Part shown: positions 19,372 to 32,000 of the stretch, piece after piece
Layout: each line of letters starts with the position of its first letter
Position numbering within the stretch: position 1 is the stretch's first letter
DNA from: Xylanibacter ruminicola 23
Lineage (GTDB): Bacteria > Bacteroidota > Bacteroidia > Bacteroidales > Bacteroidaceae
Length of the DNA: 32,000 nt
Assembly (NCBI RefSeq): GCF_000025925.1
Contig: NC_014033.1
Coordinates: 1,860,001 to 1,892,000, forward strand
Reading direction: 5' to 3'
Program-made: the position numbers and the translations under genes
Notes under the pieces: model-generated
Seen by the model: only the letters and a program-made list of their open reading frames with translations
The model's database searches: none
What the model was told of the DNA's origin: nothing

Positions 19372-22300
19372 ATGAACTTCAAACAAACCCTCATACTGTG
19401 CCTGCTCAGCATCAGTAGCATGCTATCGGCACAAAACAAGATTCTAACCAACAGCCGCCATATCAGTTCGGCCGATGGCCTGCCAAGCAATCAGATATTC
19501 GACATGACACAGGATGCCGACGGCTATATCTGGATGGCCGCCGCCAACGGCTTGTGCCGATACGATGGCTACCACTTCTACAACATCTATAACCTGGGGC
19601 CCGAAAGCGACCCTATCCATGGCGTGGTGGGCTACGTGTTCCCCGACGACGATAAGCGCCACCTGTGGATGCGCACCAGTACCTACGTGTATTGCTGTTA
19701 CGATCTGCATGCAGGCTGCTTTATCGACTTTACCAACAAAGGCGACCATGCCCGCACCTATCGCAGATTTATACGTGGCAAGCAGGGTGTGGTATGGATG
19801 TTCGACGATGAGAGCGGTGTGCGCCGCGTAAAGGGTAATACCGACGGCCCCGTGAACTGTACCGACTATACCAAGGCTAATGGCGGACTGCCCATCAACC
19901 ACGTGAACGACGCTTTCGAAGATACACAGGCCCGCCTGTGGGCCATGACCTCATCGGGCATCACCATCATTGATGCCAAAGGCAAGGCGCGCACCATTGC
20001 CAAGGGCATCTTCTTCCGTCGCGGCATACAGATTGGCCGACAGATGCTGGCACTGACCAACACTGGACTGGTTTACACCTTCGATGAGCAGGGTCGCGAA
20101 TTGCGACGCATACCCATCGCTGCCGACGTGAACAATATCAATATGGTAACCGCCAGTTTCCAGTGGCACGGTTGCTGGATGATTATGACCAACAACCAGA
20201 CGATTATGGTTAACCCCAAACAGGGCACTGCAGCTGCCACCGAGCAGTATCACGTGCGTAGCGGTGCCGTGATGGAAGGATTGACCAACGACGATAACTA
20301 CTTTGTGAGCAACAGCACAGGTATACTGTACGTGTTCCCCGCCCAGGGCGACATGCGCGTGCTGAACCTGATGCAGGGCGTGAAATCAACCGTTGAACGT
20401 TTCCGTCGTTATAATATTAAGAAAGGTGCCGACGGCCAGTACTACATTGCCAGCTATGGTAACGGTCTGTTTGTGTACGACATCCAAAACGACCGCCTGC
20501 AGCACTATTCGGCCACATCGCCATGGGCTATCGTAGGCAACAGCTATCTGAACAACATCCTCATCGACCGCAGTGGCTGCATCTGGCTGAGCGAGGAGTC
20601 AACAGGACTCACCTGTATTCTGCCTCCCGACAAGACCAACGCCGACTATTTCTACCCGCAACCCAACCGTAAGGGCGATTGGAGTAATTTTGTGCGTATG
20701 GTAACCTACACGGGTGGCAACCGCGTACTGCTGAGCACGCGCGACAACATGCTGTACGAGCTGAACCCCACCTCGTGGCAAAGCGCCACAGCCACCACGC
20801 TGCCTGCTGCTGTTTACGCTTATTACAAGGACAGTCATGGCCACCAGTGGATGGGCACTCGCGGTGGCGGATTGTACATCGATGGTAAGCCCATCGAATT
20901 CCCATCCAGTCAGATATACGATATTACCGAAGACCCATTAGGCCGATTGTGGATTGCCACCTGGGGCGACGGACTGTTTGTGGTGCGCCTGGAGGCCGAC
21001 GGACTGCTGAACATCACACATCTGATGAAGCGCTCGTACAACGAGAGTCTGATACGTATCATACGCGCCGACAACCGTCACCACTACTGGCTGGCCACCA
21101 ACAACGGCGTGTATCATATCGATATGCTGAAGAAAACGCTGACCGACGACGATTTCATCAGTCATAACATCCAGCACGGCGACTTCCCCTTCGACGAGAT
21201 CTCATGTCTGATGCCCGACTCGGCTGGCAACATCTGGGTAGGCGGTCGTGGTGGTGGCTTGCAGAAGTGCCGCTACCAGGATGGCAAGTTCAGTATCCAG
21301 CAGGGCTACACCACCCACGATGGTTTGATTACCAACAATATCCTGAGCGTAACCTCCGACCGTCAAGGCAACGTGTGGGCAGGTACCGACAACGGCATTA
21401 CCTGTATCCGCAAGGATGGCAAGGTAAACTCGTATCAATTCGGTCATACACTCGAGAGCAACATCTATAGCGAGAACAGTACTGCTATGCTGCCCGATGG
21501 ACGACTGCTGTTTGGTACAGCCTACGGTATGATGATTCTGGAACCAGAGCGACTGAATGCCAGCACACCCGAGAAGGCTGGTCGACCCATCATCACCATG
21601 GTGAGCATTGATGGTGTGGCACGTTACCTTACCACCAGCGACCGCCGATTGGTACTGAGTCACGACCAGAACTCTATCGAATTAGGATTCTCGAACCTCG
21701 ACTATGCCGGCATCGCCTCTACCCAATACCGCTATTATATGGAGGGATTGGAACACGACTGGCGACAGCTTACCAGCGACAACAGTGCCCGCTACAACGG
21801 GTTGCCACCAGGCACCTACCAGTTCCACCTGAGTTCGCTGAACAAGAACAACCAGTGGAGCGAGGAGTATGTGTTTACGGTGATTATCCGTCAGCCTTGG
21901 TACAACACCTGGTGGGCTTGGCTCATCTACCTGTTTATTATTGGCATACTGTGCTGGTACTTCTACCGCTCATGGCGACGTAACTTCGAACTCGACCAGC
22001 AGATACGTGTGGAGAAAGAGCTTACCACCTTCCGTTTGAACTTCTTTACCCACATCGCCCACGAGTTCCGCACACCATTGGCCATCATCAGCGGTGCCGC
22101 CGACAAGCTCACCCAGAAGGGTAACGATACACAGGTATCGCGTTCGGCCGTGCAGACGGTGCGCCGAGGCACGCTGCGACTTACCAAACTAGTTAACCAG
22201 CTGATGGAGTTCCGACGTATCAACACAGGTAACCAGCGTTTGGCTGTGGTTGAGGACGACATCATCAAACTGGCACGTACTACCTGCGACGAGTTCCGCG

Positions 22301-23586
22301 AGGTGGCAGCCCGCAAGGATCAGTCGCTCACCTTTACCCCATTCGCCCATCAGCACCGACTGACGTTCGACCCGCACTTGATCGAGACCATTCTCTACAA
22401 CCTGCTCTCGAATGCTATCAAATACACCCCACAAGGTGGCAGCATCAGTCTGAAGGCCAAGCTTTCCGACGATCAGCAGCAACTGCAACTGATAGTAGAG
22501 GATAGTGGTCCTGGCATCAGCGAGCTGCAGATACCACAGCTCTACCAGCCCTTTATGCACGGCTACGTATCGCAAGGTGGTATGGGCATCGGATTGTACA
22601 CCGCCTATCAGTCGGCTCTGCTCCACAAGGGACGTTTAGCCTACGAGCGCATTGCTGCCGAAGGTGGCTCGCGTTTCATCGTTACCATCCCCGCCACTGC
22701 TGATGTTTATAGTGCCGACGACTATGCCGGCAGTACCGCCGTGAACACCCAGTACGAGCCCGAGCCTACGCCCGACCATATCCGTGAGCTGGCCCCCGTG
22801 GCCTTTAACGAGAACTATACCGTGGCTATCATCGAGGACGATCCCGACATGCTCGACCAGATTCGTGAGAGTGTGGGTCGCTATTTCCGTACCATCAGTT
22901 ACACCGAGGGAAAGAAGGCGCTGAGCGATATCGGCGAGCAGCAGCCAAGTCTGATTCTGTGCGATGTGATGCTGCCCGATGTAAACGGCTTTGAGATTGT
23001 GCGCCAGCTGCGTGCCAATGAGGCTACACGCAACACACCGATGATTATGCTTACCGCACTGGATGGCGACGACCAGCTGCTGCGTGGATACAAGGCCGGC
23101 GCCGACGACTATATGGTAAAGCCATGCAACTTTGAACTGCTGGTACTGCGCATTACCCAGCTGATTCAGTGGTACGGCCGCTTACATCAGAATGCACAAT
23201 CGCCAATGGTCAATGGTCAATCTTCAATGGTCAATGTCAATGCCCCCATCATCACCGACGAGGCCGACCAGCGTTTCCGTGAAAAGATGGAAACCATCGT
23301 GGCTCAGCGCTTAGGCGATGCCGACTTTAATGTAGATACCCTCGCCTCGCTGCTAAAAATGGGTCGCACCAAGTTCTATGGTAAGATGAAGGAGTTTACA
23401 GGCATGTCGCCCAATAGCTATCTGCAGAACGAACGATTGAAGCGTGCCGCCGAACTGCTTATCGAGGGCGATCTGAACGTTACCGAAGTAAGCTACAAAG
23501 TTGGTTTCCAATCGCCCACCTACTTCTACAAGTGCTTCAAAGAAAAGTACGGTGTTCCCCCCAGCAAATTCGGGAAAAGCAAATAA
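19372..23586 (+). CDS. Hybrid two-component system sensor kinase/response regulator with AraC output (HTCS), PUL regulator
   Basis: 1404 aa. It has a signal peptide, a periplasmic beta-propeller repeat region and a TM segment (WWAWLIYLFIIGILCWYFY). Kinase motifs: H-box FFTHIAHEFRTPL, N-box YNLLSNAIKYT, G1 EDSGPGI. Receiver domain (VAIIEDDPDM..LILCDVMLP). C-terminal AraC HTH (VSYKVGFQSPTYFYKCFKEKYG). Confidence 0.92.
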   Translation: MNFKQTLILCLLSISSMLSAQNKILTNSRHISSADGLPSNQIFDMTQDADGYIWMAAANGLCRYDGYHFYNIYNLGPESDPIHGVVGYVFPDDDKRHLWMRTSTYVYCCYDLHAGCFIDFTNKGDHARTYRRFIRGKQGVVWMFDDESGVRRVKGNTDGPVNCTDYTKANGGLPINHVNDAFEDTQARLWAMTSSGITIIDAKGKARTIAKGIFFRRGIQIGRQMLALTNTGLVYTFDEQGRELRRIPIAADVNNINMVTASFQWHGCWMIMTNNQTIMVNPKQGTAAATEQYHVRSGAVMEGLTNDDNYFVSNSTGILYVFPAQGDMRVLNLMQGVKSTVERFRRYNIKKGADGQYYIASYGNGLFVYDIQNDRLQHYSATSPWAIVGNSYLNNILIDRSGCIWLSEESTGLTCILPPDKTNADYFYPQPNRKGDWSNFVRMVTYTGGNRVLLSTRDNMLYELNPTSWQSATATTLPAAVYAYYKDSHGHQWMGTRGGGLYIDGKPIEFPSSQIYDITEDPLGRLWIATWGDGLFVVRLEADGLLNITHLMKRSYNESLIRIIRADNRHHYWLATNNGVYHIDMLKKTLTDDDFISHNIQHGDFPFDEISCLMPDSAGNIWVGGRGGGLQKCRYQDGKFSIQQGYTTHDGLITNNILSVTSDRQGNVWAGTDNGITCIRKDGKVNSYQFGHTLESNIYSENSTAMLPDGRLLFGTAYGMMILEPERLNASTPEKAGRPIITMVSIDGVARYLTTSDRRLVLSHDQNSIELGFSNLDYAGIASTQYRYYMEGLEHDWRQLTSDNSARYNGLPPGTYQFHLSSLNKNNQWSEEYVFTVIIRQPWYNTWWAWLIYLFIIGILCWYFYRSWRRNFELDQQIRVEKELTTFRLNFFTHIAHEFRTPLAIISGAADKLTQKGNDTQVSRSAVQTVRRGTLRLTKLVNQLMEFRRINTGNQRLAVVEDDIIKLARTTCDEFREVAARKDQSLTFTPFAHQHRLTFDPHLIETILYNLLSNAIKYTPQGGSISLKAKLSDDQQQLQLIVEDSGPGISELQIPQLYQPFMHGYVSQGGMGIGLYTAYQSALLHKGRLAYERIAAEGGSRFIVTIPATADVYSADDYAGSTAVNTQYEPEPTPDHIRELAPVAFNENYTVAIIEDDPDMLDQIRESVGRYFRTISYTEGKKALSDIGEQQPSLILCDVMLPDVNGFEIVRQLRANEATRNTPMIMLTALDGDDQLLRGYKAGADDYMVKPCNFELLVLRITQLIQWYGRLHQNAQSPMVNGQSSMVNVNAPIITDEADQRFREKMETIVAQRLGDADFNVDTLASLLKMGRTKFYGKMKEFTGMSPNSYLQNERLKRAAELLIEGDLNVTEVSYKVGFQSPTYFYKCFKEKYGVPPSKFGKSK
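23202..23242. repeat. Heptamer micro-array (about 6 units: gccaatg gtcaatg gtcaatc ttcaatg gtcaatg tcaatg) inside the HTCS ORF
   Basis: Read directly. It is translated as SPMVNGQSSMVNVN in the linker between the receiver and AraC domains. Confidence 0.9.
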
Positions 23587-23587
23587 C

Positions 23588-23624
23588 ATTCCCCTCCTTG
23601 AACTGACCAAGGAGGGGAATTTTT
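23588..23624. terminator. Bidirectional intrinsic terminator between the convergent HTCS and amidase genes
   Basis: A perfect 13-bp stem, attcccctccttg (23588-23600) / caaggaggggaat (23608-23620), with a 7-nt loop, followed by TTTT. Confidence 0.8.
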
Positions 23625-24045
23625 AAGGCTGCAGATCAGCGTACTCTTTTGTAACACTCTCGATACACGGGCAGGCCTTCATCGGGTTCAGGTCGTGGTG
23701 ACCTACGATCACCGCCTTGGGGTAACGACTGTGCAACTCGGTTAACAGCTGTCGCAAGGCTGCTTTCTGTTCCGGTGTGCGGGTGTCGGCTGGCAGATCC
23801 AGACAGTTCAAACCGCCCTCGTAGCACACCCCGATAGAGTACTTATTGTGGTTCTTGCAGTGTGCCCCAACCATCCATTCCGGCCTACCCTGCTCTATCT
23901 GTCCGTTACGACGCACCACGTAATGGTAGCCAATGCCGAGCTTAAAGCCTCGCTGGCGATGCCAGGTATCTATCTGGGCAACCGAGGATGTCTGGTTGGT
24001 TCGCACTGCCGAACAATGAATCACGATGAGGGTTATCGTCCGCAT
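23623..24045 (-). CDS. N-acetylmuramoyl-L-alanine amidase (Amidase_2 / AmpD-PGRP fold)
   Basis: 140 aa. LIVIHCSA..., GIGYHYVVRRNG, VGAHCKNHN.SIGVCYEGG and GHHDL..KACPC fit the zinc amidase_2 motif pattern. Confidence 0.8.
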   Translation of the reverse strand: MRTITLIVIHCSAVRTNQTSSVAQIDTWHRQRGFKLGIGYHYVVRRNGQIEQGRPEWMVGAHCKNHNKYSIGVCYEGGLNCLDLPADTRTPEQKAALRQLLTELHSRYPKAVIVGHHDLNPMKACPCIESVTKEYADLQP

Positions 24046-24179
24046 GACTGCACAGCAATAGTTCCCAGAACTGTTGTAATCACTGTTGCCACAAATCGCA
24101 ACACCTTAGCTACTCTATTCCAATTTACTTTTACCATAAAATCTACTTTTTAATACGTTAATAATCTTTTTCACAACCA

Positions 24180-24736
24180 CCCAACCCTCCTTCATCCTAA
24201 GGAGTTTTTCCATCACCCCCTAGCCCCCTCTTCATAAGATGGAGTCTCGACTCTTTTCCCCACCCCTTTCCCTATCCCAGGAAAAGGGGCTTAACCGCTC
24301 CTCCTGTCGCTCTTTCATTAAGGTACGCTCAGGGCATCAAAGCCCTGGCGTGTTTTTCCTTAATGGGGGCCAGCCCCCAAACCCCTGTTCGAAAACATTC
24401 TTGCGTCCCTTCGGTAGCAAGCGAGCAGAGCTCGTAACCGCACTTCGTGCTTCATGTTTACTCACTACGTTCGAAAACATTCCGCACGAGGAGGTCTTTA
24501 GAGGAATGCAAATTCTTTGAATCGATATTGAGTCTCAGATTGCCCTCTGGCAATCTGAGCAACGAAATACGAGAAGCTGTTTGAGCGGAGCGAGTTCTTC
24601 GAGTGATTTGAAGAATTTGTGTTCCGGCCTCCGAGCTCAGGACGTTTTCGCACTCTTTCTTTTGCTTCGGTTTTCTTTCTGGTGACAGAAAGAAAATGAA
24701 GGAAGGGGGTTGCAGGGGGCTTCCCCCTGCTATGGC
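24180..24736. other. Long structured non-coding region (candidate ncRNA or decayed repeat cluster)
   Basis: There is no credible ORF. Hairpins lie at 24316-24365 (8+4+6 bp), 24534-24559 (11 bp), 24671-24696 (10 bp) and 24712-24730 (8 bp). A 14-nt direct repeat, gttcgaaaacattc, occurs at 24387 and 24469. Confidence 0.3.
24671..24730 (-). terminator. Tandem hairpins downstream of the HU-like gene
   Basis: gcaggggg-ctt-ccccctgc (24712-24730) starts 7 nt after the stop, followed by ttttctttct-ggtgac-agaaagaaaa (24671-24696). Confidence 0.5.
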
Positions 24737-25309
24737 TTAGTCACCAATTGGTTCAGTACCGCCACCTGAGGTATTACCGCCACCACCTGTGTTACCACCA
24801 TTGCTTGGTGTGCTACCACCACCGGTAGAAGGTGAGTCATTCTCCGGCTCTGGGCGCAGCGAGGTGTCGTGAGTCTCCTCAAACACCACATCCTTCAACA
24901 AGGTCTTGGCATTCACATACTTCTGAACCACCTTACCGTTCTTCTCTGCAGAACCGGTTACGATACGCTCCACCTCGGGCTGGAACAGCACACGACGAGA
25001 GGTGATGGTGCTCGCAGTACAATTGTTGGCGTCGGACACACCGATACTCGAGAATCCTACCTTGAAGATGCCGATACCTGACAGACGAATCTTCTGTCCC
25101 ATCTCCAGGAAGTGCTTCATAGCAGCTCCCAGCTCGTCGAGAGCCGCCTTGATGTCGCTACGCTTCAGCGTGGCCTGTGTCTGGATAAAGTCGGCAATCT
25201 CGTCGGTCTCGATAAACTTCTGGTCGTACACTGGCTGTGCGTAGTACTTCAGATAACTCTTCGCATTGTGAGAGTTCATGTTCTGTGTCTTGATAAATTT
25301 CTGTGACAT
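24737..25309 (-). CDS. HU-like DNA-binding protein (Bacteroidales HU_HIG type) with Gly-rich tail
   Basis: 190 aa. The core LDELGAAMKHFLEMGQKIRLSGIGIFKVGFSS resembles the HU/IHF fold. The C-terminal tail is low-complexity: GGGSTPSNGGNTGGGGNTSGGG. Confidence 0.7.
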   Translation of the reverse strand: MSQKFIKTQNMNSHNAKSYLKYYAQPVYDQKFIETDEIADFIQTQATLKRSDIKAALDELGAAMKHFLEMGQKIRLSGIGIFKVGFSSIGVSDANNCTASTITSRRVLFQPEVERIVTGSAEKNGKVVQKYVNAKTLLKDVVFEETHDTSLRPEPENDSPSTGGGSTPSNGGNTGGGGNTSGGGTEPIGD

Positions 25310-25368
25310 AATGATTAATGTTTAATGTTTAATGTTTAATGTAAAATGGTTATGGTTTATGGTTCGTG
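25310..25368. repeat. Heptamer micro-array (about 8 units: aatg attaatg tttaatg x3 taaaatg gttatg gtttatg gttcgtg) abutting the HU-like start codon
   Basis: Read directly. It begins at the base after the CAT (ATG) at 25307-25309. Confidence 0.85.
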
Positions 25369-25608
25369 AGCGGGGGTGATGTTGGGGTGGATGCTGACGT
25401 TTCTACAGCTCGAAGCTCAGTCACTTTGCGGTCGAAGATGAGTTACTTTCCCCTCCTAAACTATCGTCGGAACAACGCGTAGTTGACTTCGGAACGGGCA
25501 GAAGATAACGTTCGGACCACCCAAAACTATCATGGATCACTTGCCTTACCGAGTACAAAGATACAACATTCTGAAATACTACTGGCGCACTATGGCGCAC
25601 TCGGGCGC

Positions 25609-25833
25609 TCACGGCTTAACTTTTATGATTTTTCTCTTAGGTAGGTCGATATCAAGCTCTTTGCTCAGATATTTTACGGCCCATGGCGGTAACAGTCGCG
25701 CTTTAGGACCAACGCCCATGGCAGTGAGCGCAGGCTGATGCAAACTAATCCAACGAGTAAAAGTACGTCGTGGAGCACCCACCATAGCTCGTAGCTCCTT
25801 CTTATAGTACGATCTTACTTCTAATTCTTCCAT
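25609..25833 (-). CDS. Small DUF4248-like HTH protein
   Basis: 74 aa. YYKKELRAMVGAPRRTFTRWI...LLPPWAVKYL resembles the small proteins that sit between HU-like and VirE-type genes in Bacteroidales. Confidence 0.55.
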   Translation of the reverse strand: MEELEVRSYYKKELRAMVGAPRRTFTRWISLHQPALTAMGVGPKARLLPPWAVKYLSKELDIDLPKRKIIKVKP

Positions 25834-25858
25834 AATGTTTAATATTTAATTTTTAATG
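25834..25858. repeat. Heptamer micro-array (aatg tttaata tttaatt tttaatg) abutting the DUF4248-like start codon
   Basis: Read directly. It begins at the base after the CAT at 25831-25833. Confidence 0.8.
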
Positions 25859-25937
25859 TATGACACATTTGACAGATTAATTTATAAAAGTTACGTGCGT
25901 ACCGTGTAGGTGCGTGCGCGGTACGCGCGAGGCATTC

Positions 25938-27332
25938 CTAAAACAATGCGTCAAATGTGTCAAAAATGGTTTCGCCGCTTATCACCGATACCTCGTCCTC
26001 TGGCTTGGCTTCCTGGGCCATCAGGGTTCTGTTCAGGTCGATATCGGCACCACTATACGCCACCACGTTATAGCCACGCTCACCACGTGAGCGCACACTT
26101 ACAAAGCCCATGGCCTTCATGGCACGCCCCAGCTTGTTGGGTGTCAATCGGTGTATCAGCAAGCCGCCAATGGTTTGCATAATCTCCGAGGCACTCACAA
26201 ACACGCACGGTTCGTTCTTAGCAGGCACACGATAGAACTTGCTTACCAGTTCGCGCTCGGGTTTCGACACCTCGAACCGTTTGTTATGCAGCTGCACAAC
26301 ATCCATTTCCTTTTTCTCAAACCAGTAGTGGAACCCCTGCAGATACAGAGCATAGGCCTGGGCAAAGATCTCTTCGTGATGGATAGGATACTCGTAGGGC
26401 GAACGGATACTCTCCACCTCGAACGGTAACCAGCGGCGTGTACCCGTGTCGTCGTCGATAAACTGCAGGTTGTTACTGGTACCACAGTAGCTGGCTATGT
26501 GTACACGCCGTTCCGAATTGTGCGCATACGGTTTGCGGGCATCGGTAGCTTTTGTGGTCACAGCCCATTTCAGCCTACTCATTGCCTCTGTCTTCAGCGC
26601 ATCTATCTCATCCAGACAAATCAGTCCGAACGATGATAGTTTCAGCACCTCGTCCTTATCCATCTTACCGAAAGTAGAAGTAGAGTGGAAATAGGCCGAC
26701 AGTTCGGGAGGTATCAGACTCTCAAGCCAACGGGTTTTGTAGATACCCTGTTCGCCTACCAGCACCAGCACCTCCTCGTTCACCACTTTCTCCTCCAGCC
26801 ACCCTGCCACCACACCCACCAACCATTTGCGCAAACAGGCGTAAAACAGCAGTTGCTCGTCAGTACCGCCCTTTACTTGTACATCCATCGCCAGCGAGAA
26901 TATGGGGTTAGTCGTCTCGTCCCACGGCGGCAGTCGGGCCAGATAGGCTTTCAGCGGATTATACAACGGCACAAAATCAGAGTCGATAACCTGCCAGATT
27001 TTCTTGGGATTCACATCCTTTTGTTTCGACAGCATACTGCACAGCGAGTTCACCACCCTGTCGCTAATCTCGAACCATTGGCCAGGCAATCGCCATTCTT
27101 CCAATGGCGTTTTGCCCGTGGGATATTTAATCCCCATGGCCGCATACTCGCTGATTTCGGGCACTCGGAATTCGTCCTTACCCGTTATCACATTGTGACG
27201 CAGGTAGAGCGTGCTCATCAGGAAGTTTTGTATATCCTCCTCGGTGGCACGCACCTCGCGCCAGTTCTTTTTGTGAAAAGCGTCCCCTTGGGCCGAGCGT
27301 TGCTTATGCTCCTTTTGTTCGTTCTTAGTCAT
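25938..27332 (-). CDS. VirE/VapE-type primase-helicase-like P-loop NTPase of mobile-element origin
   Basis: 464 aa. Walker A-like LVGEQGIYKTRWLESL and Walker B LICLDEID, with an N-terminal region typical of Bacteroidales VirE_N/DUF3987-type proteins. Confidence 0.65.
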   Translation of the reverse strand: MTKNEQKEHKQRSAQGDAFHKKNWREVRATEEDIQNFLMSTLYLRHNVITGKDEFRVPEISEYAAMGIKYPTGKTPLEEWRLPGQWFEISDRVVNSLCSMLSKQKDVNPKKIWQVIDSDFVPLYNPLKAYLARLPPWDETTNPIFSLAMDVQVKGGTDEQLLFYACLRKWLVGVVAGWLEEKVVNEEVLVLVGEQGIYKTRWLESLIPPELSAYFHSTSTFGKMDKDEVLKLSSFGLICLDEIDALKTEAMSRLKWAVTTKATDARKPYAHNSERRVHIASYCGTSNNLQFIDDDTGTRRWLPFEVESIRSPYEYPIHHEEIFAQAYALYLQGFHYWFEKKEMDVVQLHNKRFEVSKPERELVSKFYRVPAKNEPCVFVSASEIMQTIGGLLIHRLTPNKLGRAMKAMGFVSVRSRGERGYNVVAYSGADIDLNRTLMAQEAKPEDEVSVISGETIFDTFDALF

Positions 27333-27362
27333 CTTTTTTCTGTTTATGATTGAAACACGTCA

Positions 27363-27370
27363 CAAAGTTA
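27363..27370 (-). promoter_or_regulatory. -7 promoter box TAACTTTG for the VirE-type gene
   Basis: The reverse complement of caaagtta matches TAnnTTTG, 31 nt upstream of the ATG at 27332. Confidence 0.35.
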
Positions 27371-27451
27371 CTGATAATTTCAGCAACCATCACAAAATTA
27401 ACAAACAGAAACGTTACTTAAAATGATGTTAAAAGGGGCGGTATCCAACCA

Positions 27452-27748
27452 TCAGAACTCGGCATGTATCTCCACATCCTCAAAGCCGGGCACCGTAATG
27501 CTGATGCTGGCTGTGCGGATATTCTGCATGATATCGGGGTACAACGGATCGGAAACAGCCGATGGAGTGGCCGTAACATAGCCATCCACCTTGGTTGCAA
27601 AACGCTGTACACTATCGGCCGCTACTGTTCCGAGGGCCAACGACTCCTGATAAAACTTCACCATCTGTGGTGTTGAAACCTGATCTTCTGTTACCTGTTC
27701 GCAACTTATCACCAAACAGGCCGAGATGATTAAAAATAGTTTGCGCAT
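27452..27748 (-). CDS. Small lipoprotein, unknown function
   Basis: 98 aa with a lipobox (MRKLFLIISACLVISC). It has its own TATCTTTG box at 27784-27791 on the minus strand. Confidence 0.55.
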   Translation of the reverse strand: MRKLFLIISACLVISCEQVTEDQVSTPQMVKFYQESLALGTVAADSVQRFATKVDGYVTATPSAVSDPLYPDIMQNIRTASISITVPGFEDVEIHAEF

Positions 27749-27834: not shown

Positions 27835-28149
27835 TCATAGCAATAGTGTTTTTAGCGAGGCAAACGAGGGGTTGAGGTTTGAGTTAAGGGTGAGCCAACG
27901 AATCAGGTCGTTTTTGCGAAAGCCACGGGCCATGATGTCAGGGCGTGCCAACAGGGCGCCCAGCTCCTGATAGATGATTTTCTTGCTGCCGCGCGGCAGG
28001 TCGCAGCGAAAATCCAGACGCTCTATCAGGCGCGCATGGCGGGGCGGGGTTTGCAACATGGGCGCAAGGCGACTGATCATCGCATCGTACTCCCGGTAAT
28101 ACTCACAATTTAAATAGTTGACTAACAGTCGGTTAGATTTGAATTTCAT
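27835..28149 (-). CDS. Hypothetical protein (104 aa), no recognisable motif
   Basis: An ATG-initiated ORF co-oriented with its neighbours. No family was recognised. Confidence 0.4.
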   Translation of the reverse strand: MKFKSNRLLVNYLNCEYYREYDAMISRLAPMLQTPPRHARLIERLDFRCDLPRGSKKIIYQELGALLARPDIMARGFRKNDLIRWLTLNSNLNPSFASLKTLLL

Positions 28150-28269: not shown

Positions 28270-29055
28270 TCAGATGGCTATACTGAATTTCACGCTGGTG
28301 CCCTTGGTGTAATGCGGGTCGATATACAGACTGCCGCCAAGCCGCTCTACCAGTGTGCGACTGATGTTGAGCCCGGTGCTGATGCGCCGCTTCATGTGGC
28401 GCACAGGGTTGAGCAGCGAGAAGATGGCTTTGCGACGCTCCTGACTGATACCACATCCCGTGTCGGATACCGACACCTCCAGGCAGTCGACCTGGTCGTT
28501 GGCCTCCACGCGTATCAACCCTTTGACTGTATATTTAACAGCATTCTCAAGCAGGTTACGCACCACCTTCTCCAGACATTCACGGTTGGTATGCACCGCA
28601 TAGAAATCAGGCATGCTCGACTTGTAGTCGACAAGCACACTCTCAGGCGCCCGTTTCTGGTATTCATCCACCAGTTCGCGACACAGCTGATTGACATACA
28701 CAAAGCCCAGCGGCAACTCCTCAGCCAGGTTCTCGTAATAGGTCAGCTCCACCATCTTATCGATGATGGCATCACGGCTCTGCGCATCGGTATGCTCGTT
28801 GAGTTCGCGGGCAGCCCAGTACATAAAGTGACGGCGTTCGCGCACATCGTCGACCAGCCGTTCGTTCTGACAGCGCAGTTTCTTCAGCTCGCGCCCGTCG
28901 TCGGCGCGCTGGCGTACCAGTTCATCGTTTCGCAGCTGCAGCTCGTCAATCTGCTTATGCCAGTGGTGATACATCACCAGCAGCGCCAAAGCCATGGCCA
29001 TCACCAGCACGACTGCTATCACACAATAACCACTCATCATCATAGGCCCAACCAT
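28270..29055 (-). CDS. Membrane-anchored histidine-kinase-like ATPase lacking the phospho-acceptor His (HK-like B)
   Basis: N-terminal TM segment (YCVIAVVLVMAMALALLVMY) followed by a coiled coil. The H-box position reads AARELNEH, with Arg where His is expected. The N-box (RNLLENAVKYT) and G1 box (SDTGCGI) are intact. Confidence 0.7.
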   Translation of the reverse strand: MVGPMMMSGYCVIAVVLVMAMALALLVMYHHWHKQIDELQLRNDELVRQRADDGRELKKLRCQNERLVDDVRERRHFMYWAARELNEHTDAQSRDAIIDKMVELTYYENLAEELPLGFVYVNQLCRELVDEYQKRAPESVLVDYKSSMPDFYAVHTNRECLEKVVRNLLENAVKYTVKGLIRVEANDQVDCLEVSVSDTGCGISQERRKAIFSLLNPVRHMKRRISTGLNISRTLVERLGGSLYIDPHYTKGTSVKFSIAI

Positions 29056-29838
29056 TTATATCTTAATACTGAATACAATCGAGGTGCAATCCTTGCGCTG
29101 CTGGTCGAGAAACATAGTGCCCCCAATCTTCTGGGTGAGCGCGTAACTGATACGCAGGCGCACACCAACAATCGTGTTGCACAGGTTACCGTCGTTGGGC
29201 AGCCGCTCAAACAGCACGTCTTTCATGTTCTCGGGTATCCCCACCCCGGTATTGCTTAACCGAAACACCAGATACTTGCCACTATCATCGGGCATCACCG
29301 ACAATTTAATATACCCTTCGTGGGTGAACTGCATCGCACTGACAATCAGATTCTTGAACAGCTTGCGCAGATAGCCCAGATGGGTGCGGATGACGAAGTC
29401 GTCGGCCAGCGAAGTCTCTACACACATCTGGACATTAGGATTATTCAGATAGCGTTCGCAGGTGTAGAACATATCCTGACAGAACATGTTAACCAGCACT
29501 TCGTCGTGACGAGGCACCTGCCCCAGATCGCCATACTGGGCCAGTTCGATGGCACAGTCCACCATCTCACCTACCAACGAGGACTTACTACGCACCTCAT
29601 GGCACATCATGTCCCAATCGCACTGATCCAACTTCAGTTCGCTGTTCATCAATATCTCCAAGTAACTGTCCACCCCCTGGTAAACAGCCTGCACGTCGTG
29701 GAGCACCTGATACAGCATCTTGGCCTTGGAATGCTCGCGACGAGCTTTCTTCATGGTGCTCACCAGCTTCTTCTGGTACTCCAGACTGTCAGGTCTGGGC
29801 ACCACCTTTTCATTATAGTTATATATCGTCGTTCCCAT
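29056..29838 (-). CDS. Soluble histidine-kinase-like protein with an H-box but degenerate ATP-binding motifs (HK-like C)
   Basis: H-box-like MMCHEVRSKSS. The N-box reads KNLIVSAMQFT, with Ser where Asn is expected. G1 reads SNTGVGI, with Asn where Asp is expected. It is a paralog of the downstream gene, and its stop codon abuts that gene's ATG. Confidence 0.7.
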   Translation of the reverse strand: MGTTIYNYNEKVVPRPDSLEYQKKLVSTMKKARREHSKAKMLYQVLHDVQAVYQGVDSYLEILMNSELKLDQCDWDMMCHEVRSKSSLVGEMVDCAIELAQYGDLGQVPRHDEVLVNMFCQDMFYTCERYLNNPNVQMCVETSLADDFVIRTHLGYLRKLFKNLIVSAMQFTHEGYIKLSVMPDDSGKYLVFRLSNTGVGIPENMKDVLFERLPNDGNLCNTIVGVRLRISYALTQKIGGTMFLDQQRKDCTSIVFSIKI

Positions 29839-29931
29839 AGCTCTTACTTGTTTTAGAAGCCCCCTGGCGTCGTCGCGACGGCAAGATGGGGCTGAGTACT
29901 AATTACTAATACATAATGTTTTAGACTTTGT

Positions 29932-30420
29932 TCATTTTATCAACACATTCTGCAGTTCGGCCAGCAGCACCATGCACTGCATGGGCGTCATCGAGGCCAT
30001 GTTCAACTGGCGGATACGCTCGGCCACATCGTGCTCAACAGGACCTTTGGCTACTGGTGGCTGCAACTCAGGATACACTGGCACCGTCGGCTGCCGCACG
30101 ACACCCTGAGGCACACTGCTACGCCAGATCTGAAACGACTGCTCGTCGATTGAGCTGTCTATTTTTATCGTTTTACAACCATCCCTGCAGTCCTCTATCT
30201 CGTGCCCCAAGCGGTGTAGCACCAACTTCGGGAAGCCTATATCCACTACATCCGAACCTACCACTTTTACAAATTTCCGTCTGACCTCATACTGTCGCAC
30301 ATGGTTCACAAACAGGTAGGCACTACGTTCGAAAGCGCGGTAGAATCCGCCCTCAGGCCATAGCCGGATTGTATTCTCGTTTTGCTGCTCGAAGGCAAGC
30401 TTTTCTTTCATTGTCGGCAT
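29932..30420 (-). CDS. MutS-domain-I-like mini protein (162 aa), candidate retroelement accessory factor
   Basis: TIRLWPEGGFYRAFERSAYLF...DIGFPKLVL parallels E. coli MutS ILLFYRMGDFYELFYDDA...PMAGIPYHAV. The C-terminal LNMASMTPMQCMVLLAELQ parallels the MutS C-terminal LTPxxAL..L motif. There is no ATPase domain. The start is taken at the ATG at 30418-30420, 25 nt after the RT stop. Confidence 0.6.
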   Translation of the reverse strand: MPTMKEKLAFEQQNENTIRLWPEGGFYRAFERSAYLFVNHVRQYEVRRKFVKVVGSDVVDIGFPKLVLHRLGHEIEDCRDGCKTIKIDSSIDEQSFQIWRSSVPQGVVRQPTVPVYPELQPPVAKGPVEHDVAERIRQLNMASMTPMQCMVLLAELQNVLIK

Positions 30421-30445: not shown

Positions 30446-31687
30446 CTACTTCTCGAATAATATCTCCAATTCCACTTCCAGGCGCGCCAGCTGTCGCATC
30501 TTCTCACGATACACTCGGCGCACACACACCTTGTATCTCTTACGGTTCATGCTCACATACATCACCTGATACCACTCAGGACTGATCCTGTCGAGCAGTT
30601 TCCTAACCTGGTTGTAAGCAGCAAAGTGGCGCATCATGCCAAGATAGGAGTTCATCGTAGAAGCAAACTCGTTCACATGCTCGCGTGCATAGTGCTCATC
30701 CGACTGAGCCAGACGATTGTAGCGCTCAATCTTGTCGATACAGGTGGCTATCGTGCGCCGGCTGATATAGGTGCGCCCTGGCATCACCATACCGCCAGTG
30801 AACAGTACGCCCTTGGAGTAGTGCTGCAGATACATCTTCTTGGGATGACGCCGCACACCGTTCCGGGCTGCCCATTTGTCGACAATCTCATCACGCATCC
30901 ATAGTAGCAGTTCCTTGTCGCGACTCACGAATATCATGTCGTCCATATAGTGGCCATAGCTCACCGACATACTCCAGAGACTGTCGGTTATCTCGTGGTC
31001 GAGATCGTCCATGAATACCAAGGCTGTCATCTGACTGATTACCTTGCCTATCGGCATACCATGCAGGCCGTCGCTGTGAAACAAACTCTTGTTGGGCGGC
31101 AAACCGTTCCAAGCTTTCAGCGGACTGTTACGCACACAATTCAGCTCAGGCCGGTCCATAATCACCACGCGCAGCAGCCATATCATCCACTCCAGGTCGG
31201 GACCACGGTATATCTGCCGTAGCAGACTGGCGAACTTGCGCCATGCAAGCTCCTTGGGCAGCGACATGAAGTACGACTGCATATCGAGCTTCATCACCCA
31301 GCAGTCGACCGTATAATTAGCTGACTGCTCTCTCACCATCTGCTCTACGCGCTGTATGCCATAGAGCGTGCCCTTGCCCACTCGGGTTGAGTAGTTGTCG
31401 TCGATGAACCGCTGCTCAAGAAAGGGCGTTACCCTCTGGGCGAAAACCGTGTCGACCACGCGGTCGCGAAAAGCTGCGCCGAAGATTTCCCGTTTCACGG
31501 GCTTATCGCTGACAAACACGATAGAGCGCGAAGGCTTGTAGGTACAGTTTTGCAACTCTTGCCACAGCTTCAGGCACTCCTCTTCGGCATTAATCTCAAA
31601 ACGAATAGCGTCTATCGTATTACCCTTGTGCCGCAAGCACAGCCAATAGGCTTCGTAGACCTCTTCGTAACTGACACCACATTTCAT
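30446..31687 (-). CDS. Reverse transcriptase, DGR-type
   Basis: 413 aa. AAFRDRVVDTVF (RT motif 1/2), KLDMQSYFMS (motif 3), GMPIGKVISQ (the (I/L)GxxxSQ signature of DGR RTs), YGHYMDDMIFV (catalytic YxDD), then RRHPKKMYLQHYSKGVLFTGG (thumb entry). Confidence 0.85.
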   Translation of the reverse strand: MKCGVSYEEVYEAYWLCLRHKGNTIDAIRFEINAEEECLKLWQELQNCTYKPSRSIVFVSDKPVKREIFGAAFRDRVVDTVFAQRVTPFLEQRFIDDNYSTRVGKGTLYGIQRVEQMVREQSANYTVDCWVMKLDMQSYFMSLPKELAWRKFASLLRQIYRGPDLEWMIWLLRVVIMDRPELNCVRNSPLKAWNGLPPNKSLFHSDGLHGMPIGKVISQMTALVFMDDLDHEITDSLWSMSVSYGHYMDDMIFVSRDKELLLWMRDEIVDKWAARNGVRRHPKKMYLQHYSKGVLFTGGMVMPGRTYISRRTIATCIDKIERYNRLAQSDEHYAREHVNEFASTMNSYLGMMRHFAAYNQVRKLLDRISPEWYQVMYVSMNRKRYKVCVRRVYREKMRQLARLEVELEILFEK

Positions 31688-31710
31688 TTACAAATAGTCA
31701 ATATTCCATA

Positions 31711-31830
31711 GGCGAGGACGGGGCGAACGCGTCGGTCCGTATTGGACTTAGTGTTGTTGCCGTTCAGATAGAGTTTACCATCGGTGTTGAAGTTCAGATT
31801 GAACGCATAGCCAGCACCCTTTCCACTCGA
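31711..31830 (-). repeat. Candidate DGR template repeat (TR)
   Basis: The minus strand reads SSGKGAGYAFNLNFNTDGKLYLNGNNTKSNTDRRVRPVLA. It has seven AAC/AAT Asn codons and a ..VRPV end, like the variable C-terminus of C-type-lectin/DUF1566-type DGR targets. It ends 24 nt upstream of the RT ATG, and no start codon or long ORF is attached. Confidence 0.6.
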
Positions 31831-32000
31831 ACAAATGTTATCAGTTGTCTTCTGTCTTTACTAACTGCACCGTTTACGCGACGGTCGTGTCAGTCGATAA
31901 CCCCTATAGATAATAGTTGACAGCTCTCTCCGCCAAGCCTTGACCGGGCGGACGCTCGCCATTTGGTGTTTGTTATTACTTTATTTAATGATCACTTATC

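Follow-up and report, generated by a model that had tools for sequence, protein, structure and literature searches.

What are two tandem genes doing side by side when the histidine-kinase-like proteins they encode each appear to be deprived of a different part of the catalytic machinery? The question is raised by a stretch of 32,000 nucleotides from Xylanibacter ruminicola 23 (contig NC_014033.1, positions 1,860,001 to 1,892,000; the whole stretch is called here the window, and positions given without a locus name are its own). A preliminary description of the window had seen in the two genes a reciprocal loss of catalytic motifs and had predicted from it an obligate heterodimer, one chain binding ATP and the other supplying the phospho-acceptor. 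We come to another answer, for and against which the chances seem to us about equal: the two genes, called C and B, would constitute a pseudokinase accessory module of a diversity-generating retroelement (DGR), linked to the DGR accessory protein Msl (MutS-like) and swappable. Both products combine a dimerization and histidine phosphotransfer (DHp) domain with a catalytic and ATP-binding (CA) domain, and their genes, like all those of the cassette discussed below, are on the minus strand:

29056-29838, minus strand: C, a soluble DHp-CA protein of 260 amino acids, with a full-length DHp, the H-box His kept and a degenerate ATP site
28270-29055, minus strand: B, a single-pass membrane-anchored DHp-CA protein of 261 amino acids, whose DHp is truncated and carries Arg where the His would be, and whose N and G1 boxes are intact
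29053-29058, minus strand: stop codon of C (TAA) abutting the start codon of B (ATG), read as …AAG ATA TAA ATG GTT…

The tandem arrangement with abutting stop and start codons, and the succession of a soluble and a membrane-anchored paralog, had been noticed beforehand and are confirmed by the coordinates of the open reading frames, the TAAATG junction and hydropathy: B has one strong N-terminal membrane helix (19-residue Kyte-Doolittle maximum of 2.88 at residues 11-29) and C has none. The same abutment is found in the related loci L011 and L012, and a 4-nucleotide (nt) ATGA overlap in L054 (related loci and proteins are designated by L and P numbers). Both proteins pass the Pfam HATPase_c cutoff of 26.4 bits (36.9 bits for C, 63.9 bits for B) and match many NCBIfam histidine-kinase models across the DHp and CA domains, all far below the cutoffs of these models. 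They align with each other from DHp helix 2 to the C-terminus (27% identity over 169 amino acids, 62 bits, E 6e-16); the hybrid two-component protein of the window (19372-23586) gives a 38-bit match to B and none to C. The top Foldseek matches of the B model are HK853, WalK, CusS, RetS and DivL, not MutL or anti-sigma kinases. Sequence and predicted fold place the origin of both proteins among ordinary class I histidine kinases, with their DHp and CA domains. The codons that matter for catalysis are the following:

29698-29700, minus strand: C His47, the true H-box histidine (LHDVQAV), as given by alignment to known phospho-His, family conservation and its place in helix 1 of the model
29338-29340, minus strand: C Ser167, at the position of the Mg-binding N-box Asn; Ser or Cys in all 22 C-family sequences
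29251-29253, minus strand: C Asn196, at the position of the G1 Asp
28807-28809, minus strand: B Arg83, at the position of the H-box His in alignments that include canonical kinases
28792-28794, minus strand: B His88, nearly invariant, in the turn of the DHp hairpin, five residues past Arg83 and off the canonical acceptor position
28543-28545, minus strand: B Asn171 (N box)
28462-28464, minus strand: B Asp198 (G1 box)

All the motif strings quoted in the preliminary description were recovered in C, B and the hybrid two-component protein, and its reading of the ATP sites holds: Asn and Asp are replaced in C (Ser167 and Asn196) and present in B (Asn171 and Asp198), which, as had also been stated, has Arg at the aligned His position. 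The H-box of C, in contrast, had been placed in MCHEVRS (His80), and this has to be corrected. In matches to PDB sequences the phospho-His of HK853 and that of 7z8n align to His47; in the 22-member C family His47-Asp48 is nearly invariant whereas position 80 varies (H, Q, R or S); and in the AlphaFold2 model of C (pLDDT, the predicted local distance difference test, 81.4), where helix 1 spans residues 19-63 and helix 2 residues 72-101, His47 is part of helix 1 and, as in HK853, stands 16 residues above the hairpin, whereas His80 belongs to helix 2. All three lines point to His47 as the canonical H-box histidine, which C thus retains. Because the H-box of C is at His47 while His80 sits in helix 2, the DHp alignment proposed earlier, pairing AARELNE of B with MCHEVRS of C, is out of register. 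What is left of the reciprocal loss is its essential pattern, His without Asn in C and Arg with Asn in B, but with a different histidine in C.

If the two proteins are compared with class I histidine kinases, C has the DHp hairpin with an H-box His and an acidic residue, and its CA domain is devoid of the N-box Asn and of the G1 Asp-x-Gly-x-Gly, while B has no H-box His in a full DHp hairpin. Loss of the G1 Asp is confined to the C clade of the window, DTGxGIP being kept by most of the C family. The G2 box of C reads VGVRLRI, and HDVQA stands in C where the HE/DxxN/T phosphatase motif would be. Arg83 of B (in WAAREL) occupies the phospho-acceptor column in alignments of the B family with canonical small kinases and with the HisKA-positive protein P0032, and it is invariant across 11 B-family sequences, as are Asn171 and Asp198-x-Gly200-x-Gly202. 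The N box of B is RNLLENAVKYT and its G1 box DTGCGI; its G2 box (STGLNI) is degenerate. The distance from the H position to the N-box Asn is 88 residues in B, compared to 119-120 in relatives, about 30 DHp residues being missing after the H-box. In the AlphaFold2 model of B (pLDDT 79.4), a long helix (residues 5-87) and a three-residue turn precede a second helix of only 22 residues; Arg83 is therefore placed four residues above the tip of the hairpin, and B is predicted to have no lower half of the usual four-helix bundle. In canonical kinases this lower part is the docking site of the response regulator. P0032 itself, a metagenomic protein of 341 amino acids recognized by the Pfam HisKA model, has an otherwise perfect H-box (LARQLRTPL) with Arg for His.

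The surroundings of the pair are those of a DGR. The order in the window is template repeat (TR), reverse transcriptase (RT), Msl, C, B and orf104, and C and B are the terminal genes of a Bacteroidales-type, pilus-type DGR:

31690-31860 (homologous core at about 31712-31816), minus strand: TR region, A-rich, 100-170 nt, upstream of the RT; six related DGR loci have TRs that align with it
30446-31687, minus strand: DGR reverse transcriptase, 413 amino acids, with IGKVISQ and YMDD motifs; Pfam RVT_1, E 4.5e-14
29932-30420, minus strand: probable Msl, DGR accessory gene, 162 amino acids from the Met at 30420; assigned from its position after the RT, which is that of Msl in published DGRs (PMC5758913; bioRxiv 10.1101/2024.11.15.621889), and a weak MutS_I match
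29962-30041, strand not applicable: mosaic junction within the 3′ end of msl; it joins the DGR core to the kinase-like module (identity switch from L051 to L012)

A DGR-type RT thus stands beside a TR in the window; its sole PDB match is 8ub7, a reverse transcriptase of 328 amino acids (E 1.5e-9). In related loci the order is integrase, pilus genes (DUF3575, Mfa2, DUF3868), a gene of about 700-760 amino acids, bAvd, RT, a gene of 154-170 amino acids and the kinase-like gene(s). The repeat just upstream of the RT in these loci matches the 3′ end of the 700-760 amino-acid gene, as a TR does its variable repeat (VR), and in six related loci the TR/VR mismatches fall at TR adenines in 13/13, 8/8, 14/14, 14/14, 14/14 and 12/13 cases. 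The TR region of the window is 100% identical over 171 nt to that of L051, whose own TR and VR differ at 26 positions, 17 of which are TR adenines. From 32000 down to 29962 the window is 91.5% identical to L051, a complete cassette consisting of DUF3575, DUF3868, a 451 amino-acid gene, a 703 amino-acid target, bAvd, TR, RT and Msl. No VR was found inside the 32-kb window. Since the window has the L051-like 3′ portion, it therefore holds the 3′ half of the DGR, Avd, the VR and the variable pilus-adhesin gene being expected beyond coordinate 32000. A retron or defence-RT system was also considered and rejected: the matches in PADLOC are limited to generic RT models, with none for the other genes, and the related loci have bAvd genes, TR/VR pairs and pilus targets as DGRs do. 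Nor are C and B themselves DGR targets, as no TR-like repeat is present in or near them.

The Msl protein of the window matches MutS_I below threshold (E 0.1-0.14); in its family 3/10 members match, at best with E 0.016, and the family profile finds no MutS in PDB. A MutL-like GHKL partner for a MutS-like protein was among the ideas tried for C and B and was dropped, all their matches being class I histidine kinases and none MutL; what is left is a loose functional analogy.

Two observations tie the kinase-like genes to the DGR. First, RT and/or Msl are immediately upstream in every C-family locus whose upstream sequence is readable (L001-L006, L008, L011-L013, L015-L017, L020, L051, L052, L054, L055 and L057). 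Msl homologues are directly upstream of the kinase-like genes in most loci; they form two subfamilies, and kinase-like genes follow both. The association goes as far as covalent linkage in P0163 (348 amino acids, L030:20-1066), in which an Msl domain is naturally fused to one of the DHp-CA type; its N-terminus is 28% identical to the window Msl over 112 amino acids (E 1e-5). Second, the window is a mosaic. The C-type gene of L051 is only about 49% identical to C despite the matching TR, RT and Msl, while from 30041 down to 28265 the window is 95% identical to L012, whose RT shows 46% protein identity. The joint falls in the last 30-110 nt of msl. The behaviour of the kinase-like genes is thus that of an exchangeable module, passed from one DGR core to another at msl. 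The DNA past the joint (C, B, orf104 and orf98) matches the L012 and L019 lineage. The conserved C-terminus of Msl may be a crossover site or a contact surface.

We then asked how general the residue pattern of the window pair is. A C-family profile searched against 1.84 billion representative proteins retrieved a radiation of small (about 250-350 amino acids), mostly single-pass membrane-anchored DHp-CA proteins, followed by ordinary kinases. Residues of the H-box, N-box, G1 and G2 were tabulated for 66 proteins, and the H-box His and N-box Asn are distributed as follows:

His and Asn both present: only the canonical small kinases P0178, P0182, P0192, P0201 and P0216
His present, Asn absent: the C family, P0146 and P0163
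His absent, Asn present: the B family (Arg); the C′ group (Arg, Lys or Ala, with a degenerate G1); P0143, P0154, P0157, P0164, P0165, P0181 and P0032
Both absent: P0142, P0144, P0145, P0147, P0149, P0150, P0160, P0290, P0291 and P0297

No degenerate member of the family keeps both residues, and many keep neither. When lineages are delimited at about 50% identity, His and Asn co-occur in none of some 28, where about two would be expected (hypergeometric p of about 0.04, a rough count that ignores phylogeny); as a statistical signal, mutual exclusivity of the two residues is suggestive only. Arg or Lys at the His position recurs in several lineages that retain Asn, namely B, the C′ group, P0154 and P0032.

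Among pairs, the window type, L054 and L006 combine a C that has His but no Asn with a B that has Arg and Asn, and these complementary states are kept in C-B pairs ranging from 97% to about 47-52% identity to the window pair. L013 provides a second kind of complementary pair, C′ (Arg and Asn) with C (His, no Asn). The C′ protein in question (L013:8595-9449) is encoded between Msl and a window-type C and has a full-length DHp with Arg at the His position, the Asn kept and a degenerate G1 (DTGPA); its relatives P0148, P0292-P0296 and P0298 have Arg, Lys or Ala at the His position. Complementarity is not kept wherever a pair occurs, however. L057 contains a genuine C-B pair with Tyr at the His position of C, and the C-family cluster P0007 has Gln there. 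In L030 the Msl-fused P0163 (His, no Asn) is paired with the next gene (L030:1116-1952), which has Glu and no Asn, and in L053 the His position is occupied by Gln in one partner and by Thr in the other, with Asn in neither. C-type genes with the same dead N-box are moreover found without B in at least five lineages (L001-4, L005, L017, L018 and L051).

Do the two proteins then work together? Both genes are under purifying selection: in comparisons with homologues, dN/dS (ratio of non-synonymous to synonymous substitution rates) amounts to 0.13-0.23 (C) and 0.10-0.15 (B), and no locus has a broken reading frame. Across loci, the identities of C and B to the window pair track each other (97/97, 90/95, 80/82, 64/69, 47/52 and 49/49%), while C and B of one locus are only 25-37% identical; an old duplication therefore lies behind them, and they have been co-inherited ever since. 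In every readable locus but L005, a C-family gene that encodes no membrane helix has a membrane-anchored B after it. Taken together, the complementary states, the co-inheritance, the coupling of the genes and the nearly constant placement of a soluble C before an anchored B make a C-B complex plausible. In such a hetero-complex, formed through the DHp helices, B would supply the membrane anchor and a probable nucleotide-binding CA domain, and C the full-length DHp hairpin. It would work with Msl rather than with a response regulator, and would gate or assist mutagenic retrohoming or couple retrohoming to the state of the envelope or pilus.

For the window pair, one can imagine that B phosphorylates His47 of C in trans. 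The conservation, in the window lineage, of His47-Asp48 and of the N and G1 boxes of B makes such a reaction possible there, but it would not be a conserved function of the family. The existence of C-B pairs without His, of C singletons and of pairs without the catalytic residues, the truncated DHp of B and the lack of a regulator indicate that transfer of a phospho-His is not what selection keeps family-wide. A phospho-His output is less likely than a conformational switch driven by ATP or a role as scaffold.

A bolder version of the accessory-module reading, which we would back only with marked reluctance, is that the pair and its wider family are the missing control element of Msl-type DGRs, a membrane-tethered, regulator-less ATP switch made from a dead histidine kinase. 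Msl would be bound via the exposed lower DHp hairpin of C, and the switch would decide whether the cDNA:VR heteroduplex becomes a new adhesin allele, so that a signal from the envelope or pilus would be coupled to hypermutation of the pilus tip. With Arg replacing the acceptor His, the contact between CA and DHp would change from a phosphotransfer step into a nucleotide-dependent latch.

Several points weigh against seeing in C and B a DGR accessory module. The family is small and metagenome-only (21 and 10 clusters at 90% identity), and two scans of GTDB representative genomes gave no C relative and one weak B relative. L001/L002 and L057 have no Msl between RT and C. In L022 and L026, members of the extended family have no RT in view and adjoin a Big_2 surface protein, or an Msl fragment and DUF6722. 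In L011, an Mfa-like gene with a VR-like 3′ end precedes Msl, a helix-turn-helix gene, C and B, and there is no RT. From these RT-less loci it follows that the tie may be to the adhesin or pilus locus and not to retrohoming itself. We infer a physical C-B link, and one between the kinase-like genes and Msl, from synteny and one fusion, and the functional link to retrohoming from these and from the module behaviour. Finally, the near-invariance of His47-Asp48 in C and the invariance of the N and G1 residues in B fit retained catalysis in this lineage.

As for L011, its VR-like sequence (L011:7478-7627) is 83% identical to the TR of L013 and lies at the 3′ end of a 700 amino-acid Mfa-like gene, and the contig, 12 kb long, carries no Avd, TR or RT. 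The gene may be a DGR target that has lost its RT, or one that depends on an RT acting in trans. Among viral contigs, nothing was found for C and only generic kinases for B.

Retained catalysis is at the heart of the first rival explanation, a split kinase, in which B of an obligate C-B heterodimer phosphorylates His47 of C, and C~P passes the phosphoryl group to a regulator encoded elsewhere. Two co-encoded proteins each lacking one half-reaction are indeed what is seen in the window clade, L054 and L006, and the conservation of complementary states in most C-B pairs, the catalytic residues just mentioned (in B, Asn171 and Asp198-x-Gly-x-Gly), the translational coupling of the genes and the placement of soluble C almost always before membrane-anchored B would all be accounted for. 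There are also precedents, in FasBC (PMC12675982) and CheA3/CheA4 (PMC3591291). We nevertheless think this explanation unlikely. The Tyr of C in L057 and the Gln of P0007 leave no acceptor His, C occurs with its dead N-box and without B in the lineages listed above, and related pairs have both partners without catalytic residues (both residues in L053, Asn in L030). In B, the DHp is short by about 30 residues, which include the usual regulator-docking part, and the G2 box is degenerate; C has no phosphatase motif. No receiver-domain gene (Pfam Response_reg) was found in the window neighbourhood or in the gene tables of the related loci, so that the absence of an adjacent response regulator, already remarked upon, extends to every related locus, although an unlinked regulator may exist. 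The histidine originally assigned to C was wrong, though His47 rescues the pattern. Of the obligate heterodimer proposed at the outset, complementary states, co-inheritance and coupling remain in favour, whereas the Tyr of L057, the C singletons, the pairs devoid of the residues and the truncated DHp of B speak against one chain binding ATP and the other accepting the phosphate.

Another possibility, which we consider distinctly improbable, is that the pair regulates the expression or assembly of the neighbouring type V pilus/adhesin operon, its link to the DGR being due only to the DGR's position inside that operon. This would explain why extended-family members come after genes for large surface proteins, Big_2 or Mfa-like, where no RT is seen (L011, L022) and why the recurrent neighbours (DUF6722, orf104) are membrane or small proteins; B also matches the model of the Porphyromonas fimbrial kinase FimS, non-specifically and far below its cutoff (E 4e-12). 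But the genes are always at the RT/Msl end of the cassette rather than next to the pilus structural genes, a fusion to Msl exists in one relative, L011 and L026 keep Msl beside the kinase-like gene even though the RT is absent, and there is no conserved DNA-binding output partner.

It could also be that B is an active GHKL enzyme of another sort, a Ser/Thr/Tyr kinase or a partner-switching ATPase, acting on C, Msl or orf104, with C as a substrate or regulator and not as a carrier of phospho-His. B has N and G1 boxes yet Arg in its H-box, Arg or Lys is recurrent there in the Asn-retaining lineages B, C′, P0154 and P0032, and orf104 is a conserved small neighbour. However, the sequence and fold of B are those of class I histidine kinases, not of SpoIIAB/RsbW-type or PDK-type proteins, and no STAS-like or other known substrate domain is present, which makes this explanation very unlikely. 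That C and B are decaying remnants of a duplicated kinase, or unrelated passengers without a joint function, is hardly credible: catalytic residues are lost in many members and the family is rare, but dN/dS is 0.10-0.23 for both genes with frames intact in all loci, synteny and coupling persist down to 47-52% identity, and the non-catalytic motifs are strongly conserved.

Some features of the neighbourhood deserve mention. The first is a small gene downstream of the pair:

27835-28149, minus strand: orf104, a conserved small protein after the kinase-like gene(s); homologues follow C or B in L001-4, L011, L012, L019 and L053

It has no match in Pfam, PADLOC or NCBIfam. DUF6722, a two-helix membrane protein of about 68 amino acids, adjoins Msl and kinase-like genes in four loci (L005:9200-9409, L006:7947-8153, L022:5474-5680 and L026:983-1189) and may be another component of the module. 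In L051 (8949-9068) and L052 (2896-3012), a membrane peptide of 38-39 amino acids (…MISGYLLILWLMY…) directly follows the 311 amino-acid C-type gene; given its resemblance to the N-terminus of B, the peptide may be what is left of a B gene since lost. A 110 amino-acid gene found after B in L008 was considered as a second Msl, which a score of 3 bits does not support. The terminator scan found no minus-strand terminator-like site between RT and B. The 93-nt spacer between msl and C contains, at 29858-29893 and inside the block common to L012, an imperfect palindrome that can be drawn as a hairpin (AGCCCC…GTCGCGAC…GGGGCT); it is not a classical terminator because no T-run comes after it. Downstream of the module (23623-27748) the window encodes a lipoprotein-like protein (orf98), a VapE-like primase/helicase (25938-27332), DUF4248 and HU-HIG proteins and an N-acetylmuramoyl-L-alanine amidase-like protein, a gene set typical of Bacteroidales that also flanks the module in L003, L011, L014, L019 and L026.

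How do C and B compare with systems already described? In 1991, Yang and Inouye reportedly restored kinase activity by forming heterodimers of EnvZ subunits, one devoid of its His and the other with a dead ATP site. This is an engineered version of the split-kinase model, made in one homodimeric kinase, whereas C and B are two natural genes with 25-37% identity and unequal hairpins. FasB and FasC of group A Streptococcus are products of tandem kinase-like genes and are proposed to form a heterodimer in which the CA of one phosphorylates the DHp His of the other, the His-bearing partner being a proposed pseudokinase (PMC12675982). The likeness to C and B is in the tandem genes and in the proposed pairing of one CA with the His of another DHp. 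But FasBC has a response regulator, FasA, in its operon and multi-pass sensor regions, while C-B loci have no regulator, the DHp of B is truncated, some orthologous C-B pairs have no His and the genes belong to a DGR cassette. CheA3 and CheA4 of Rhodobacter sphaeroides do not autophosphorylate alone and do so together (PMC3591291), each being without one half of the kinase reaction, as is the case, by residues alone, for C and B. They are of the CheA class, with a split between whole domains (the P1 His domain and the P4 kinase domain), they feed CheY6 and they have no link to a retroelement; C and B, in contrast, are HisKA-type DHp-CA proteins split by point substitutions.

DivL, with Tyr at the His position, and RetS are histidine pseudokinases that signal by protein contacts, and RetS heterodimerises with another kinase via its DHp (PMC4211667, PMC8498467). 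Like C and B, these are DHp-CA proteins with lost catalytic residues; both are among the sequence or fold matches of the pair, and the C-type protein of L057 has Tyr at the His position as DivL does. DivL and RetS are, however, large multi-domain proteins wired into response-regulator networks, whereas C and B are minimal (anchor, DHp and CA), belong to a radiation with many substitutions and are tied to Msl and a DGR.

On the DGR side, the known accessory genes are Avd, HRDC, Msl and CH1 (PMC5758913; bioRxiv 10.1101/2024.11.15.621889). Msl has been described for DGRs generally (PMC5758913), and the Msl-type DGRs of Bacteroides diversify type V pilus adhesins; these pilus-type elements are nearly silent in vitro and tightly regulated, by signals and mechanisms that, according to the authors, await discovery (bioRxiv 10.1101/2024.11.15.621889). 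The window shares with them the Msl-type architecture and conserved non-RT genes in the cassette, but the published Msl-type Bacteroides DGRs are described without kinase-like genes. No kinase-like or HATPase_c gene is described as a DGR accessory gene in the DGR literature that we searched. Thus split kinases, heterodimeric kinases, histidine pseudokinases and Msl DGRs are known; what we did not find in that literature is a recurrent, swappable, kinase-derived DGR module with an Msl fusion.

If the split-kinase model were true for the window pair, C and B would be a natural HisKA-type counterpart of the engineered EnvZ complementation. More broadly, the family encoded after Msl is a concrete, testable candidate either for the on/off control of DGR hypermutation or for a new step of retrohoming. 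The family also forms a natural series leading from kinase to pseudokinase, with members that keep only His, only Asn or neither, as singletons and in pairs, and such a series could show what role DHp-CA proteins play once phosphotransfer has been lost.

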